Below are positions 6,900-47,834 of a DNA stretch of 62,035 nt, one piece after another. Position numbers and translations under genes: made by a program. The DNA is from an uncultured Bdellovibrionales bacterium (GTDB lineage Bacteria; Bdellovibrionota_C; UBA2361; SZUA-149; CAYOZL01). Below the pieces are notes generated by a model. That model ran no database searches. It was not told the DNA's origin and saw only the letters and a list, made by a program, of their open reading frames with translations. Within the stretch, counting starts at the first letter, position 1. Every line of letters starts with the position of its first letter. The stretch spans positions 1 to 62,035 of the forward strand of contig CAYOZL010000006.1 of NCBI GenBank assembly GCA_964408435.1, read 5' to 3'.

Positions 6900-8264
6900 G
6901 TGATAGCTAAAGATAAAATATTTAGAGAGTACGACATTAGAGGTGTTGTAGGAGAAGATTTTGATAATGAGTTTGCGTATAATTTAGGCAAAGCTTTAGC
7001 TCATAAGTTAAAAGAGAACGGTGATAATTTAAAATTTGGTGTTGGTCGAGACTGTAGATTATCAGGACCGGAGATACAGAAAGAAATGCTTAGAGGTCTT
7101 ACAGATTCAGGTATTACTGCTGTAGATTGTGGCATGGGGCCAACTCCACAGTTATATTTTTCTGTTTATGATTTAAATCTTGGAGGCGGAGTGCAGATTA
7201 CTGCTAGCCATAATCCAGGTGATCAAAATGGTTTTAAAATGATGATAGGTAAGGGGACTTTAAGTGGTGCTTCAATTACCGAATTAAGAGATTTAGCAAA
7301 AAAAGATTTACCAGTAGCAGAGACTAAAGGCGAAGTAGAAGAGTTTGATGCGCAATCTGCTTACTTGGAAAAGTTAGTTAGTTGTTCAAAATCATTCATG
7401 GGTAAAAGAAAGCTTAAGGTAGTTGTTGATGGCGGAAATGGCGTTGGTGGAATTTCAGGGCCAGAGCTTTTAAGACAATTAGGCTGTGAGGTAATAGAGC
7501 TTTTTACTGAGCCTGATGGAAGGTTCCCTAACCATCATCCAGATCCAACAGTAATGGAGAACATTATAGAGCTTTCTAAAACTGTAGTTGAGCAAAAAGC
7601 TGATTTAGGTATTGGATGGGACGGAGATGCGGATAGAATAGGAGTAGTAAACGAAAAAGGTGAAATTATATACGGAGATATGCTCTTAGTTATATACGGT
7701 AGAGAGTTGTTAAAAGATATTAAATCTCCAACTATAATTGCAGATGTTAAGTGCTCTGAGTTATTCTTTTCTGATCTCAAGTCTAAAGGTGCAAACCCTG
7801 TAATGGCAAAAACAGGCCATAGTCTCATTAAAGCAAAATTAAAAGAATTAGATGCTGAACTAGCTGGAGAGATGAGTGGACATATCTTTTTCTCTCATCG
7901 ATATTACGGCTTTGATGATGCTTTGCATGCAAGTGCGAGATTAGTAGAGATAATGAGTAAAACTGATAGTGCAATTAGTGAATTGATTTCTGATTTACCT
8001 ACAATGTATAGCACACCGGAGATTCGAGTTGATTGCCCAGATGAACTTAAATTTGAAGTTACAAAGCAAGCAGTTAATTCATTTCCTGAATATGAGGTAA
8101 ATACTCTTGATGGAGTTAGAATTACTTTTGAAAAAGGTTGGGGCTTAGTAAGAGCTTCAAATACTCAAGCATCATTAGTTATGAGATTTGAAGCTGAAAC
8201 AAAAGATTTATTACAATCTTATAAGTCTTTGGTTGAAGAAAGAGTGCTACCTTTAATAGCTTAA
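6900..8264 (+). CDS. Phosphomannomutase/phosphoglucomutase (alpha-D-phosphohexomutase family)
   Basis: 454 aa, GTG start. Active-site loop TASHNPGDQNGFK, metal-binding DGDADR, sugar-binding GEMSGH. Confidence 0.88.
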   Translation: MIAKDKIFREYDIRGVVGEDFDNEFAYNLGKALAHKLKENGDNLKFGVGRDCRLSGPEIQKEMLRGLTDSGITAVDCGMGPTPQLYFSVYDLNLGGGVQITASHNPGDQNGFKMMIGKGTLSGASITELRDLAKKDLPVAETKGEVEEFDAQSAYLEKLVSCSKSFMGKRKLKVVVDGGNGVGGISGPELLRQLGCEVIELFTEPDGRFPNHHPDPTVMENIIELSKTVVEQKADLGIGWDGDADRIGVVNEKGEIIYGDMLLVIYGRELLKDIKSPTIIADVKCSELFFSDLKSKGANPVMAKTGHSLIKAKLKELDAELAGEMSGHIFFSHRYYGFDDALHASARLVEIMSKTDSAISELISDLPTMYSTPEIRVDCPDELKFEVTKQAVNSFPEYEVNTLDGVRITFEKGWGLVRASNTQASLVMRFEAETKDLLQSYKSLVEERVLPLIA

Positions 8265-32525: not shown

Positions 32526-33317
32526 ATGAAAAAGAAAGAAAAAATAAATAAAGAAAAAGTAAGAAAAGAGAAAGTAAAGTTACTTAAGCCAAAACTGAAG
32601 CCTGAGCTGAGTAAAAAAATTAAGTCTAAAACGGTTTTAATTCCAAGCTTAATTACTATGGGAGCTCTTTTTTGTGGTTTCTTAGCAATAGTTAGTGCTT
32701 ATAATGGAAAGTTCTTTTACGCGGCAAAATGTATAATTGCTGCTATTATTCTAGATGGTCTAGATGGCAGAGTCGCAAGAAAATTAAATGCAACTACTCC
32801 ATTTGGAAAAGAGTTTGATTCCCTAAGTGACTTAATAAGTTTTGGGGTTGCTCCTGCGATGTTGATGTATTCTTGGGGCCTTTCAAAAGTTGCAGATGAA
32901 ATTGGTTTGCTTTCTTGTTTTCTCTATTTAGTTTGCTGTTCAGCAAGACTTGCAAGATTCAATTTAGATACTGATAGTGGACTAAAATCTTTTACCGGAA
33001 TGCCTAGTCCAGCAGCTGCTGCTGCTTTAGTAACTCTAACTTACTGTTTCCCTTCTCAAGTAGGAAATATATATTTAGCATTTGGAATAATGGTTTATAC
33101 AATTTTTGTAGCTGTTTTAATGGTTTCTAACTTTAGTTTTTTAAGCCTCAAAAAAATGCATCTCACAGAAGCGAATAAAAATAAAAGTATGCTTGGATTA
33201 GCAGCTTTAATCGTATTGTTATGGAAATACTCACAAGAGCTACTACTAATTTTAGCTATTATTTATACTTTTAGTGGACCAGTAATTTATTATTACAAAA
33301 AGCTAAAGAAAGCTTAA
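32526..33317 (+). CDS. pssA: CDP-diacylglycerol--serine O-phosphatidyltransferase
   Basis: 263 aa, multi-TM, with the CDP-alcohol phosphatidyltransferase motif DGLDGRVAR-x8-G-x3-DSLSD. Confidence 0.82.
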   Translation: MKKKEKINKEKVRKEKVKLLKPKLKPELSKKIKSKTVLIPSLITMGALFCGFLAIVSAYNGKFFYAAKCIIAAIILDGLDGRVARKLNATTPFGKEFDSLSDLISFGVAPAMLMYSWGLSKVADEIGLLSCFLYLVCCSARLARFNLDTDSGLKSFTGMPSPAAAAALVTLTYCFPSQVGNIYLAFGIMVYTIFVAVLMVSNFSFLSLKKMHLTEANKNKSMLGLAALIVLLWKYSQELLLILAIIYTFSGPVIYYYKKLKKA

Positions 33318-42643: not shown

Positions 42644-44326
42644 TTATCGACTTATATTTGCGTATCTGATTCTTTTAGGAGTGCTAGCTTCTGCACCTAA
42701 ACGTTTAATTTTATCTTCTTCATATTCAGAGAAGTTCCCATTAAACCAAGTAACCTTACTATCGCCTTCAAATGCTAAGATATGAGTAGCAATTCTATCT
42801 AAGAACCATCTATCGTGACTTATCACCACTGCGCAGCCTGCAAAGTTTAGTAAGCCTTCTTCTAATGCTCTTAAAGTGTTTATATCTAAGTCATTTGTAG
42901 GTTCATCAAGTAGTATTACATTTGCTCCTTGTTTAAGAAGTAGTGCTAATTGAACTCTATTTCTTTCCCCGCCAGATAATTCGTTAACTTTTTTCTGTTG
43001 ATCTGAACCATTAAAGTTAAATCTTGCAGTATATGCTCTAGCATTTACTTGTTGTTTACCAACTTCAACTAAATCAAGACCACCAGAGATAACATCAAAA
43101 ACTGTTTTATCAGAATCAAGCACTTCTCTAGATTGTTCCATATAACCTAGCACTGCAGTCTCTCCAGTTTTAAATTCTCCAGTATCAGGTTTTTCCAATC
43201 CTGTTATTAATTTAAATAAAGTAGTTTTACCCGCTCCGTTTGGTCCAATAATTCCAACGATACCACCTGGGGGAAGCGAAAATGATAAATCTTGATATAA
43301 AACTTTATCTTCAAAAGTTTTAGAAATACCTTTTGCTTCAAGAACAATATCTCCAAGTCTTGGTCCTGGTGGAATGAATATTTTTATATCTTTAGAGATC
43401 TTCTCGGCATCTTGTTTTAGTAAGTCATCATATGCATTGATTCTAGCTTTGTTCTTAGAGCGCCTAGCCTTAGGAGCCATCTTAATCCATTCAAGTTCTC
43501 TTTTAAGAGTCTTAGCTCTTTTATCTTCTCCTTTAGCCTCATCTGCTAAACGTTTTTGTTTTTGCTCTAGCCAAGAAGAGTAATTTCCTTTCCAGGGAAT
43601 ACCTTGTCCTCTATCAAGTTCTAAAATCCAACCAGCTACGTTATCTAAGAAGTATCTATCGTGTGTTACAGCAATTACTGTGCCCTTGTATTGTTGTAAA
43701 TGCTTTTCTAGCCAGTATACTGATTCAGCATCTAAATGGTTTGTAGGTTCATCAAGTAGCAAGATATCAGGCTCAGAAATTAATAACTTACAAAGTGCAA
43801 CTCTTCTTCTCTCTCCACCAGATAAGTTCGCTACATTTTGGTCCGCTGGTGGGCATCTTAATGCCTCCATAGCATAGTTAAGTTTATCATCTAACTCCCA
43901 AGCATTCGCCGCATCTAATTTTTCCATTAGTGTAGCTTGCCTAGTTGTAAGTTTCTCCATTTCTTTATCATCTGAAACTTCTGCAAACTTAGCGTTTATT
44001 TCTTCAAATTCTTTAAGTAGATCTGCAGTTTCACCTGCTCCTTGAGCAACAATTTCTTTAACAGTTAAATTTGGATCTAATTGAGGCTCTTGCTCTAAAA
44101 AACCAACAGTGTAGCCATCTGATAAATGAGCCTCGCCAATAAAGTCTGTATCCACGCCTGCCATGATCTTTAACAACGTAGATTTTCCAGAACCGTTTAG
44201 TCCTAAAACACCAATTTTAGCACCATAAAAATATGATAGTGAAATGTCTTTTAAAACATGTTTTTTAGGAGGTACGACTTTACCAACTGACATCATGCTA
44301 TAAATTACTTTTTTATCATCGCTCAT
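42644..44326 (-). CDS. ettA: Energy-dependent translational throttle ABC-F protein EttA
   Basis: 560 aa with two ABC cassettes (GLNGSGKST, GPNGAGKTT; LSGGERRRVAL, LSGGERNRVQL). End-to-end resemblance to E. coli EttA, including VTHDRYFLDNVAGWILELDRG. Confidence 0.92.
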   Translation of the reverse strand: MSDDKKVIYSMMSVGKVVPPKKHVLKDISLSYFYGAKIGVLGLNGSGKSTLLKIMAGVDTDFIGEAHLSDGYTVGFLEQEPQLDPNLTVKEIVAQGAGETADLLKEFEEINAKFAEVSDDKEMEKLTTRQATLMEKLDAANAWELDDKLNYAMEALRCPPADQNVANLSGGERRRVALCKLLISEPDILLLDEPTNHLDAESVYWLEKHLQQYKGTVIAVTHDRYFLDNVAGWILELDRGQGIPWKGNYSSWLEQKQKRLADEAKGEDKRAKTLKRELEWIKMAPKARRSKNKARINAYDDLLKQDAEKISKDIKIFIPPGPRLGDIVLEAKGISKTFEDKVLYQDLSFSLPPGGIVGIIGPNGAGKTTLFKLITGLEKPDTGEFKTGETAVLGYMEQSREVLDSDKTVFDVISGGLDLVEVGKQQVNARAYTARFNFNGSDQQKKVNELSGGERNRVQLALLLKQGANVILLDEPTNDLDINTLRALEEGLLNFAGCAVVISHDRWFLDRIATHILAFEGDSKVTWFNGNFSEYEEDKIKRLGAEASTPKRIRYANISR

Positions 44327-44400
44327 ATAGTTAAGACCTTTTAGATTTAGAGCCAGATAATATAGTTAAGTTCGGGTAGTGGCAAGCTTCTGGCGCTAAT

Positions 44401-44451
44401 TCTTAGTCTTAGTCTTAATCTTAATCTTCGTCTTTTTCTTCGTCTTGGTCT
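44401..44451. repeat. Hexanucleotide array, left arm: 8.5 units of TCTTNN
   Basis: TCTTAG TCTTAG TCTTAA TCTTAA TCTTCG TCTTTT TCTTCG TCTTGG TCT. Confidence 0.9.
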
Positions 44452-44468
44452 AAAAAAATCAAGATTTC

Positions 44469-44585
44469 AGACTAGGATTAAGACTAGGACCAAGACGAAG
44501 ATCAGGACTAAGATTAGGACTAAGAAGTAAGACCAAGACCAAGATTAAGATCAAGACCAGGATTAGGGCTAAGATTTAGGACTGG
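44469..44585. repeat. Hexanucleotide array, right arm: about 19 units of the reverse-complement unit (NNAAGA / AGGAYT)
   Basis: AGACTA GGATTA AGACTA GGACCA AGACGA AGATCA GGACTA AGATTA GGACTA AGAAGT AAGACC AAGACC AAGATT AAGATC AAGACC AGGATT AGGGCT AAGATT TAGGAC. 44488-44501 is exactly complementary to 44437-44450. Confidence 0.9.
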
Positions 44586-44618
44586 AACAATCCATAAATA
44601 TAAACTATTAATAAACAC

Positions 44619-45656
44619 ATGGCAGATAGTAAAAAAACAAATACTCTATTCATCGAAGTAACAGGCTCTGGTCTACCCGAAGTCGACGGCTTATTTGTTC
44701 CTTCAACTGCACCACCAAAAGAGTCTGAATCAGGAACACTCTCAAGTCTAGGATACTGGAATGGAAAAATGGCTTGGGACAGAGCTGATGGTAAATCTGC
44801 AAGGAGTCCATCAATCTCTTATTCTAATTCTTATAAGTCATGGAGAATCTCTAGACTAGATGGCCATTTAGCTTATGATTTCACTTGTGATGACGACTTG
44901 CCCCCAATTAAGGGTGATTGGCATGTTTACAAAAAGGGAGTAGCCCCTGCGCCAAAAGTAACTATTCATTATTGTGATCCTAGAAAGCCTTGTCCTAAGC
45001 CTAATGTCGTTTTTGTTTTAGGTGGTCCTGGAACAGGTAAGGGAACAATGTGCGAGCTCGCAGAAGTTCAACTCGGTTGGACCCATTTATCAATTGGAGA
45101 TTTGTTACGTAAAGAACGTGAGGCAGGTGGTAAGACTGCAGAGACAATTGAAGAGTATATAACTGCTGGGAAGTTAGTGCCTAATGAAATAACTGTTACT
45201 TTACTTGATTCCGCAATGGAGAAAATTATTAGAACAACTGGGAATAATAATTTTTTACTTGATGGCTTTCCACGTTCTTTAAAAAACATGGAAGGGTGGT
45301 ATGAAATTTTTGGTAAAGAAACCGAGCTACCTAAAATGCTTTATTTAGAATGTCCTCTCCCAGTGTTAGAACAACGTATTTTAGGTCGTGCAAAGTATTC
45401 TGGAAGAAGTGATGATAATTTAGAAAGTATGAAACTTCGTTTTGATACTTTTAAGTCTGAGACTGTGCCAACGGTCGATTTTTTTAAGAGCAAGAATAAA
45501 TGTGTAGAGATTGATACTAGTTCGGACCGAGAAACTGTATATGCAAAGGTGAAAAATTATTTATCAGAATATACAGATAAAGAATTAATCGACAAGCCAC
45601 TTAGTGAAAGAGCTGAGATTCTGCTCGGTTTAAAGCCTTATCCTAAGAAGTCCTAA
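44619..45656 (+). CDS. Eukaryote-type short adenylate kinase / UMP-CMP kinase fused to an unrecognised ~125-aa N-terminal domain
   Basis: 345 aa. The C-terminal ~215 aa carry KPNVVFVLGGPGTGKGT (P-loop), LSIGDLLR, LLDGFPR and GRSDDNLES with no LID insertion, which is the short AK1/UMP-CMPK type. The N-terminal 125 aa have no motif I can name. No Shine-Dalgarno sequence before the ATG. G+C is visibly above the neighbours. Confidence 0.75.
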   Translation: MADSKKTNTLFIEVTGSGLPEVDGLFVPSTAPPKESESGTLSSLGYWNGKMAWDRADGKSARSPSISYSNSYKSWRISRLDGHLAYDFTCDDDLPPIKGDWHVYKKGVAPAPKVTIHYCDPRKPCPKPNVVFVLGGPGTGKGTMCELAEVQLGWTHLSIGDLLRKEREAGGKTAETIEEYITAGKLVPNEITVTLLDSAMEKIIRTTGNNNFLLDGFPRSLKNMEGWYEIFGKETELPKMLYLECPLPVLEQRILGRAKYSGRSDDNLESMKLRFDTFKSETVPTVDFFKSKNKCVEIDTSSDRETVYAKVKNYLSEYTDKELIDKPLSERAEILLGLKPYPKKS

Positions 45657-45723
45657 TAATGTCCCTATATATGCACCTGATAAAATTTTAAGAAACCTAT
45701 AAAAAAAATTTGTTAAAAAACTT

Positions 45724-46482
45724 ATGAATGAATACGTAATTGCCTTTCAAGGCGGTTTAGCAGCCACTTTCGCCACTCTTGTAGCTTCTTTCTCAGGAGG
45801 AGGGCTTTCTCTAATCTTGTTTCCTATACTATTGTTTATTACTCCTTATTCTTATGTTTCACTTCTTACGGTAGCTAAAGTAAGTGCAACTCTTATGACT
45901 ATTACCAGTACAAGAATTCATGCTTTTAAAAATAAACTTGATTATAAATTCATATTGCATTTAGCATTGTTCCAAGTTCTAGGAACGGCACTTGGAACTT
46001 ATTTTTTACAATATAAATTTAATGAAAACTTATTTAAAACATTACTTGCTTGGACAATTGTTTTAACTGCTAGCTATTTATTTTTCTCTAAAAAAATAGG
46101 TTTAGAACAAAAAATCAAAAAAGAAATAACTAAAGAAGTTTACATAGAATCTGCAATTGTTTGTTTCTTAATTAGTATCTTAAATGGTCTTTTTGGTGGG
46201 ACTGGTATTTTTATTACAATATATCTTTTAGTTGCCTTAAAGATGTCTTTTATAGAGTCAATGAAGCTTGTAATGCCATCTTGTGGAATTGTAAATTTTA
46301 TACAAAGTCTTTACTTGTTATTTTCAGAATGGGTAGAATGGAAATTGGTCGCATGTGTTGTGTTGGGTAGTATCGTTGGTAGTTTCTTCGGAACCAGACT
46401 CCAGTATTTAAAAGGAAATCTTTGGGTTAAAAGGGCAGCCGTTATTGTGATGTATGTAATAGGAGTCAGAACTCTCTTGTAG
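45724..46482 (+). CDS. TauE/SafE-family anion (sulfite) exporter-like membrane protein
   Basis: 252 aa, about 7-8 TM, with an internally duplicated 4-TM architecture and Gly-rich helices typical of TauE/SafE. Confidence 0.6.
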   Translation: MNEYVIAFQGGLAATFATLVASFSGGGLSLILFPILLFITPYSYVSLLTVAKVSATLMTITSTRIHAFKNKLDYKFILHLALFQVLGTALGTYFLQYKFNENLFKTLLAWTIVLTASYLFFSKKIGLEQKIKKEITKEVYIESAIVCFLISILNGLFGGTGIFITIYLLVALKMSFIESMKLVMPSCGIVNFIQSLYLLFSEWVEWKLVACVVLGSIVGSFFGTRLQYLKGNLWVKRAAVIVMYVIGVRTLL

Positions 46483-46484
46483 TT

Positions 46485-47255
46485 TTATTTAAGCAATAAA
46501 ACAAAGGATAAACTCAATAAATCAAATAAAAAATGATAAATAATTACAGGAAGTAGTTTTTCTTTAGTGCAAATATAAGCAAGTCCAAAACCAAAACCTA
46601 AGCCTGCTGTTGATATTGCTGCTTGTAGTCCCCAACTATGATAATGAGCAAATCCAAAAATTATAGAGCTAATTAATATTGCAATTAGATCTCTATATTT
46701 TGACTTTGCTAGTATCTTAGAGCGTCTTAGGGAGCTTAGTAACAATCCTCTAAAAACAACTTCTTCTAAAACTGCAATCCAAATAGATAGAAATAAAATG
46801 TAGCCAGAAAGTTCTAAATAAGAAACTTTACTTGCAAGTTGTTTTGGCCTTAAAGTTTCGGTTATTGTTTCAGAATGTTGTGAGAGTATGTCAGGGCAGA
46901 GTAGCACGATTATAACTGCAGGAATGCATCCTAAGGCGAAAGCAGTATGTGTTAAGATTAAATCTTTTTTAATTCCTTTGTATAAATTGATTTTGGGAAA
47001 ATTTAATTTGTTTCTAAAAAGTATTGAAATTATACAAATTACTCCAAATATAACAGTAGAGATATAAGAAGATGAATATATCGAACTAAGTATTGGGATA
47101 AAAGATATAAGCAAGCATAAGATTACAGTTTTGTTTTCTAGGTAATTATTAAGCTCTATTTTGCTATTGTGTTTATATTTTGAATGTAAATCTTTCCATT
47201 TCTCTATTGCTAGGAATTTATTTAAACTGCTTTGTTCTTGAGAGGATTTTTCCAT
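46485..47255 (-). CDS. CPBP-family intramembrane glutamic endopeptidase (CAAX protease-like)
   Basis: 256 aa, multi-TM, with motif 1 EEVVFRGLL, motif 2 FGFAH and motif 3 HFLFD. Confidence 0.8.
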   Translation of the reverse strand: MEKSSQEQSSLNKFLAIEKWKDLHSKYKHNSKIELNNYLENKTVILCLLISFIPILSSIYSSSYISTVIFGVICIISILFRNKLNFPKINLYKGIKKDLILTHTAFALGCIPAVIIVLLCPDILSQHSETITETLRPKQLASKVSYLELSGYILFLSIWIAVLEEVVFRGLLLSSLRRSKILAKSKYRDLIAILISSIIFGFAHYHSWGLQAAISTAGLGFGFGLAYICTKEKLLPVIIYHFLFDLLSLSFVLLLK

Positions 47256-47348
47256 AGATTAAGGTATTGTCGACATTTATAGATGAAACCTTAGTATAGA
47301 AATTACTTTTCTAGACTAAATGTTCTTTTTTAGCTAACTTTTTCTTCT

Positions 47349-47834
47349 ATGAATAAAAAAGATCTTTCGAATTCGTCTCTTAGCTTACTTTTTGTAAGCA
47401 CGTTATTAATAATATTTTTAACTTCTTGTTCATCATTATTTTTTGCAATGAACCCTCCTGAGGTTACTTTATCTAATATTACTATCGATCGTATAGAATT
47501 ATTAGAAACTACTGCTACGATTACTCTTAGAGTAGAAAACGAAAACAACGATACTTTAGAGGTTTCAAATGGCTCGTATAATCTCTACATTAATGACTCT
47601 TATGTTGGAAGAAGTTTAGATAATATTGGTCTAACTGTTAAGCCGTATTCTACAGCTGATAAGAGTTTGAAAATTAAAATAGACAATATGAAAATTCTAA
47701 GACAAATGGATACTTTGTTCTCTAAATCTAGAGTGAATTATACTCTTAGGACAAATATACAATTAGTTAAACCTTTTAAGAGACTTTTAAAGCTTGAGAA
47801 AAAAGGCGAAGTTAACTTATTTAGAAAGTCATAA
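47349..47834 (+). CDS. LEA type-2 / WHy (water-stress and hypersensitive-response) domain lipoprotein
   Basis: 161 aa with a lipobox (FLTSC) followed by the LEA_2 pattern (PEVTLSNITIDRIELLETTATITLRVENENNDTLEV..GSYNLYINDSYVG). Confidence 0.7.
   Translation: MNKKDLSNSSLSLLFVSTLLIIFLTSCSSLFFAMNPPEVTLSNITIDRIELLETTATITLRVENENNDTLEVSNGSYNLYINDSYVGRSLDNIGLTVKPYSTADKSLKIKIDNMKILRQMDTLFSKSRVNYTLRTNIQLVKPFKRLLKLEKKGEVNLFRKS

Follow-up and report, generated by a model that had tools for sequence, protein, structure and literature searches.

In Neisseria meningitidis, a TAAA tract upstream of the nadA promoter modulates expression and is contacted by IHF, NadR and the alpha subunit of RNA polymerase (RNAP) (PMC2791445), and TGAAAGA tracts upstream of the hmw1A and hmw2A promoters of Haemophilus influenzae modulate expression as well (PMC2651432). 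Tracts of this type alter the spacing and occupancy of upstream elements (PMC2791445; PMC2651432). Here, we analysed a window of 62,035 nt (33% G+C), which is a whole contig encoding proteins whose closest matches are from Oligoflexia/Bdellovibrionota MAGs, and we describe a pair of inverted hexad arrays located in it between ettA and a nucleoside monophosphate kinase gene. Like the nadA and hmw tracts, these arrays are short-unit tandem tracts distal to the core promoter (approximately −50 to −100 and beyond, relative to promoters that are predicted here) and their unit number differs between close strains. In contrast to the nadA and hmw tracts, which consist of perfect units and serve one surface-protein gene, the locus comprises degenerate hexamers in two inverted arrays that face two divergent housekeeping-type genes; it also persists across species-level lineages and is known from sequence alone. 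The long perfect tract associated with high-frequency switching in nadA/hmw-type contingency loci was not found at ettA, where the arms reached 82% and 69–73% match, respectively, and the only perfect tract in the window is at positions 1–26.

Other repeat classes share parts of this architecture. The variable-number tandem repeats (VNTRs) and minisatellites used in MLVA typing are, like the arrays, intergenic and built of imperfect units, with gain and loss of units and blocks between close strains; the arrays differ from them in their 6-nt unit, their head-to-head layout and the fixed orientation of each arm towards its promoter. Unspaced 6–7-bp units, both direct and inverted, also cover promoters in the (NATWAT)n hexamer model of Fur operators and in the heptad arrays bound by the omega repressor of pSM19035, and the Fur- or omega-type protein polymerises cooperatively along them. 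The likeness to these operators is one of anatomy only (contiguous short units, direct and inverted, at a predicted promoter); the consensus ARGAYN differs from both NATWAT and the omega heptad, and the arrays are found upstream of the core promoters, not over them. With the (GAA)n tract of Mycoplasma gallisepticum vlhA, which is a perfect trinucleotide with an exact-number on/off rule in many paralogous surface-protein genes, the arrays share a purine-rich short repeat upstream of the promoter in fixed orientation to the gene. REP/BIME sequences, MITEs and foldback elements are similarly intergenic, inverted and hairpin-capable, but here the arms consist of variable-number tandem hexads, with no further copy in the window or in related contigs and no target-site duplication at the edges, in agreement with a first-pass annotation of the window that had not recognised the array as a REP or named MITE type. 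A literature search on repeats in Silvanigrella or Oligoflexia yielded nothing relevant. The locus is a promoter-associated VNTR with an unusual head-to-head layout at two promoters and an unusual persistence.

Anatomy of the paired hexad arrays and their flanks

The left arm (44401–44451) reads, on the plus strand, TCTTAG twice, TCTTAA twice and then TCTTCG, TCTTTT, TCTTCG, TCTTGG and a final TCT, i.e. 8.5 hexads of the form TCTTNN with a TCTT core that is invariant throughout, exactly as the first-pass annotation had described; read on the minus strand (the ettA sense strand), the unit is N-A-R-G-A-Y. Tandem Repeats Finder reported this arm with period 6, 8.5 copies and 82% match. It is followed by the A-rich 17-nt central spacer AAAAAAATCAAGATTTC (44452–44468), also as annotated, and by the right arm (44469–44583), in which approximately 19 degenerate hexads read A-R-G-A-Y-N on the plus strand (the kinase sense strand). 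The right arm had been described as approximately 19 reverse-complement units from 44469, which was correct as to the number but not as to a single clean register, which is broken by a +1 phase slip near 44523–44529. Tandem Repeats Finder gave periods of 6, 12 and 49 for this arm (69–73% match), and the last of these indicates a higher-order two-copy repeat of approximately 49 nt each, located at 44479–44574. The sequence GACCAAGACGAAGA at 44488–44501 pairs exactly with the reverse complement at 44437–44450, which confirmed the complementarity noted earlier.

In each arm, the purine-rich strand carrying the N-A-R-G-A-Y unit is the sense strand of the gene that the arm faces. The hexad consensus was the same in both clades, with a near-invariant A.GA core, R and Y varying by transitions and one position free. 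Perfect runs at the ettA locus were short, reaching 4 units in the related contig L081 and 2 in the window itself. When a degenerate hexad model was run over the whole window, it matched only the two arms and positions 1–31, and no hexad runs were obtained in 20 + 30 shuffled sequences. Exact triple hexads occurred 15 times in the window relative to an expectation of 0.03, and all were inside the arrays. The array had been said to fill almost the whole intergenic region, which was an overestimate, as it occupies 185 of the 292 intergenic bases and the remainder holds promoter-like elements.

It had also been proposed that stop codons interrupt every reading frame. This was incorrect, since several frames are open through a whole arm: plus frame 0 is open from 44381 to approximately 44527, plus frame 1 across the right arm and minus frame 1 across the left arm. 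The conclusion that the array is non-coding nevertheless holds, because start codons are lacking in the array frames, the only ORFs are spurious (≤ 32 aa), and the 38 nt by which the left arm differs between strains are not divisible by 3 and would break the frame; a coding tract was thus rejected. The array is not a CRISPR, as previously noted, since its hexamers are contiguous and have no spacers where a CRISPR would show 25–40-nt repeats and unique spacers. A replication origin was rejected because the whole window has 0 DnaA boxes (TTATNCACA) and the local skew minimum reflects gene orientation only. Plasmid similarity was rejected, as the only matches were coding low-complexity stretches in Bacillus plasmids, and one further candidate relative (L084, encoding a 751-aa "EttA") was discarded as an unrelated GC-rich locus.

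A second hexad locus, on the minus strand, is found at the very start of the contig (1–26), where it is cut by the contig end. The perfect (TAGTCT)×4 recorded there was confirmed as ×4.3, and the first TAAGAC unit supplies the TAA stop codon of pilU (24–26). The tract at pilU comprises ≥ 4.3 perfect units in the window, compared to 2 units followed by unique sequence in L331 (94% PilU identity to the window). No other hexad-array locus and no isolated hexad sites suggestive of a regulon were detected in the remainder of the 62 kb. Among related contigs, hexad runs of this kind were confined to the ettA locus, and contigs without the ettA array had none. The description of the unit as a dispersed family was therefore an overstatement, resting as it did on two loci in 62 kb. 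Scans of metagenome and viral sequences with TCTTRR ×4 returned, among the matches listed, heterogeneous microsatellites over a wide GC range, some of them inside ORFs and none from this lineage; the pattern is too permissive, so that these scans were uninformative on a family. One unrelated low-GC metagenome contig (L156, 2200–3200) carries a longer repeated segment in two copies approximately 690 bp apart, each containing (CTAAGA)5 and further degenerate units; this may be a repeat-bearing element of another kind. In L338, the degenerate period-6 tract (CTTTTT) at 7730–7786 falls within a 281-aa ORF that belongs to no Pfam family; it is unlike the ARGAY hexads and probably encodes a Lys/Glu-rich repeat. 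In the window itself, an A/G-rich low-complexity tract with periods 4, 15 and 25 (32528–32579) is found at the very start of the ORF 32526–33317.

The left neighbour had been named ettA, and this was borne out: the gene (42644–44326, minus strand) encodes an ABC-F translation factor with two ABC_tran domains and an ABC_tran_Xtn domain, and its relatives are named EttA. The right neighbour (44619–45656, plus strand) had been called a eukaryote-like kinase. Its catalytic half is indeed closest to eukaryotic enzymes (e.g. 1qf9, 1tev and 1uky), but the 345-aa product is a UMP-CMP-type nucleoside monophosphate kinase and not a protein kinase. The N-terminal part of approximately 125 aa belongs to no Pfam family and has many invariant residues; its predicted model was all-beta at low confidence (pLDDT 31–64), too low for a fold search. 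Full-length relatives of the kinase (loci L001–L080) were found at 73–83% identity in many unrelated groups, including Planctomycetota, Verrucomicrobiota, Halomonas, Marinobacter, Bdellovibrionales and Myxococcota, which suggests extreme conservation, wide horizontal spread, or both. In the window, the stretch from 44619 to 47834, between ettA and a photolyase gene, encodes the kinase, TauE, a Rce1-like protease and an LEA_2-domain ORF. This block is missing between ettA and the photolyase gene in relatives with 83–84% EttA identity (L085 and L087/L088), and L338 retains kinase-TauE followed by a different gene set that includes a protein of approximately 1557 aa, possibly the counterpart of the large NAD-glutamate dehydrogenase that is encoded 20 kb away in the window. 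From these gene orders, the region around the kinase block looks like a rearrangement hot spot.

Promoter-like elements were found on both sides of the array, consistent with the earlier proposal that it is located between two divergent promoters. On the ettA side, the element TTGCCA-17-TATTAT (44357–44385, minus strand), with 10/12 matches to the consensus, separates the left arm from the start codon of ettA and was kept in L081, L082 and L338 (in L338 as TTGCAC-17-TATTAT). Approximately 15 nt separate the left arm from the predicted −35 in the window; the corresponding distance in L338, counted by eye, is 19 nt. On the kinase side, the element CTGGAA-18-TATTAA-7-ATG (44582–44621, plus strand) was missed by the consensus scan and recognised by conservation: CTGGAA (44582–44587), TATTAA (44606–44611) and ATG (44619) are identically spaced in L081, L082, L338 and the window. 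The right arm directly adjoins CTGGAA, a weak predicted −35. The contig L337, which shares the −10-to-ATG part of this element, begins at the kinase-proximal edge of the intergenic spacer, and its first 19 bases (AGATGTGTATAAGAGACAG) resemble a Nextera transposase adapter left in the public assembly. No Shine-Dalgarno sequence was found upstream of the kinase ATG, and because of this and the TATTAA-7-nt-ATG spacing conserved in four lineages, the kinase mRNA is probably leaderless. Since the predicted promoters adjoin the arms, both arms would be far-upstream regions of two divergent promoters. The distance between the two predicted −35 elements ranged from 95 to 252 bp across lineages, and no conserved helical phase was observed between the two promoters (19.2, 24.0, 9.05 and 17.7 helical turns).

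Strain variation and persistence of the arrays

Comparison of unit counts between strains had been suggested as a way to detect slippage, and such polymorphism was found. Between the same anchors, the stretch measured 217 nt in the window, 267 nt in L081 and 110 nt in a third strain (L082), with all unit counts taken from short-read metagenome assemblies. EttA of L081 is 99.6% identical to that of the window, and the flanks of the array in these two strains (3116 + 262 nt) were approximately 98.6% identical, with point substitutions only and no gaps. Relative to the window, L081 has 38 additional nt in the left arm, read by eye as two perfect TCTTAG units and a 26-nt partial duplication, and 12 additional nt (two units) in the right arm. 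L082/L083, with 98.6% EttA identity, have approximately 5 + 6 units. The 17-nt central spacer is identical in L081, is replaced by an 8-nt loop in L082 and corresponds to approximately 40 AT-rich nt in L338. The indels between strains coincide with direct repeats. Strains therefore differ by the gain or loss of whole units and of multi-unit blocks, the pattern expected from slipped-strand mispairing.

More distant relatives also carried the array. L338 (EttA 90% and kinase 83% identical), which has the synteny MatE-prfC-ettA / kinase-TauE as in the window, keeps both arms with approximately 8 + 4 units around its AT-rich spacer. In L085/L086 (EttA 84% identical), in which the kinase block is absent and ettA faces the photolyase gene, there is a one-armed array of approximately 12 units upstream of ettA that follows the same N-A-R-G-A-Y-type hexad logic. 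The left arm was thus present in all four array-bearing lineages (L081, L082, L338 and L085), and the right arm only in those with the kinase (L081, L082 and L338). The identity of ettA to the window at four-fold sites was 0.93, 0.58, 0.51 and 0.38 in these lineages, compared to approximately 0.40 by chance, so that silent sites are saturated in L085/L086. The position and orientation of the array, and its hexad consensus with the A.GA core, persist across lineages with saturated silent sites, and the array therefore outlives neutral sequence memory. It is also dispensable, since L087–L090, a sister group of L085 with EttA 90% identical to it, have a 74-bp spacer without an array.

The variant units themselves were lineage-specific. 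The left arm of the window and the right arm of L081 share a 26-nt string, a length reached by 0 of 500 simulated arm pairs, and no sharing of unit strings between arms beyond the hexad consensus was found in L082 or L338. Specific unit strings common to both arms in the window/L081 clade indicate that an inverted duplication or a conversion between arms occurred there.

Proposed function and rival explanations

We tentatively favour the interpretation that the two arms are promoter-upstream hexad VNTRs which evolve by slippage and may tune the flanking genes in cis. Each array would start at about −50 of one of the two divergent predicted promoters and make up its far-upstream region. The arms would most likely provide multiple binding sites, either for a DNA-binding factor that oligomerises or for the RNAP alpha-CTD, such that the number of units and the distance between the promoters would set the output of both promoters quantitatively. 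A protein-binding array had been among the roles proposed earlier. On this view, the arrays would act as a tuning knob and not as an on/off switch, since high-frequency switching would require less degenerate tracts. A more specific version of this interpretation, which we regard as rather doubtful, is that a putative oligomerising protein recognises ARGAY hexads, that the orientation-locked arrays co-regulate ettA and the kinase gene, that slippage yields graded heritable set-points, and that selection has maintained the arrays past silent-site saturation.

The main rival, and one with a considerable chance of being correct, is that the arrays are neutral, self-perpetuating VNTRs: a proto-repeat in permissive intergenic DNA would have been expanded by slippage and homogenised by unit turnover (concerted evolution) with no relevant effect on the flanking genes, and the inverted arm would be a by-product of one inverted duplication. 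The coincidence of indels with direct repeats is what slippage predicts, and the lineage-specific variant units, the loss or original absence of the array in the L087 lineage and the lack of a regulon-like set of sites in the 62 kb are in keeping with neutrality, as are the pilU locus, at which growth from 2 to more than 4 units resembles the usual origin of a microsatellite, and the sporadic occurrence of (TAGTCT)n microsatellites in many unrelated contigs among the matches listed. Self-renewal by slippage could, moreover, give persistence without selection. However, position, promoter-relative orientation and the A.GA core were kept where silent sites are saturated, the right arm co-occurs with the kinase, both arms adjoin predicted −35 elements, and the deletion bias of bacterial genomes should, on general grounds, remove 100–250 bp of useless DNA.

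As an alternative to tuning by unit number, the quasi-palindrome could extrude as a cruciform under negative supercoiling between the divergent promoters, sensing supercoiling and coupling their activities. We consider this unlikely, although the DNA folded far better than shuffled sequences in the window (−31.6 kcal/mol, z −5.3), L081 (−58.6 kcal/mol, z −11.5) and L082 (z −6.1), and the centre is AT-rich. Hairpin potential was not significant in L338 (z −1.4) and was absent in L085 (z +0.8), the arms are specific mirror copies of each other only in the window/L081 clade, and inverted hexad arrays of any kind pair at 4/6 positions by construction. Since hairpin potential ranged from strong to non-significant to absent, and arm complementarity was not kept across lineages, cruciform formation is not the conserved property of the locus, and the earlier suggestion of a cruciform did not hold as an essential feature.

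There is, in our estimate, a very small chance that the arms act as RNA, in long 5′ leaders or as a small RNA in which AAGA/AGGA motifs bind a CsrA- or Hfq-type regulator or ribosomes. For both genes, the sense strand is the purine-rich one, and the right arm contains 7–8 GGA motifs, but the left arm has almost none, and the conserved promoter-like elements are downstream of the arms, which would therefore not be transcribed. Known structured RNAs were likewise rejected, with 0 Rfam matches at gathering score; permissive matches were to eukaryotic miRNA hairpin models, at 19–49 bits compared to the 55–150 needed.

The array could also be the remnant of a mobile element, either foldback or MITE-like, or a junction left by insertion of the kinase-TauE block, as had been suggested when it was described as a scar or vehicle of kinase delivery. 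The inverted-repeat architecture, the lack of the block 44619–47834 from the ettA–photolyase interval of L085 and L087, and the restriction of the right arm to lineages with the kinase fit this explanation, which we nonetheless judge highly improbable. The ettA-side arm exists in L085/L086 without the kinase block, no further copy of an element and no evident target-site duplication were found, arm lengths differ widely between strains, and 0 of 80 kinase loci elsewhere (626 kb) have period-6 or ARGAYN arrays, on which basis an array travelling with the kinase was rejected. Because the left arm is associated with the 5′ region of ettA and only the right arm with the kinase, a delivery vehicle or scar fails as an explanation for the array as a whole.

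An assembly artefact is scarcely conceivable. Contig ends do tend to fall near these repeats in this lineage: (TAGTCT)n is cut by the start of the window, L083 terminates within the left arm, and L337 begins at the edge of the spacer. However, the locus was assembled independently with the same architecture in at least 6 ENA or Logan assemblies (L081, L082/L083, L085/L086 and L338 among them), overlapping pairs agree (L082/L083 over their shared part, and L085/L086 likewise), and the array is real.

To our knowledge, nearly all bacterial promoters described as containing variable repeats are those of host-adapted pathogens, in which the repeats switch surface or restriction genes. The organism here is an uncultured, low-GC Oligoflexia-type bacterium, and the genes are those of a translation factor and a nucleotide kinase. 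If the arrays are neutral, they would represent a clean bacterial case of long-lived microsatellite concerted evolution and a useful strain marker. If they are functional, the "tuning-knob" idea would extend to housekeeping genes of free-living bacteria, and the arrays would point to a novel hexad-binding regulator. Should the reading that involves an oligomerising protein be true, VNTRs would tune core physiology, with ettA as a translation throttle and a kinase that is unusually conserved, rather than surface antigens.
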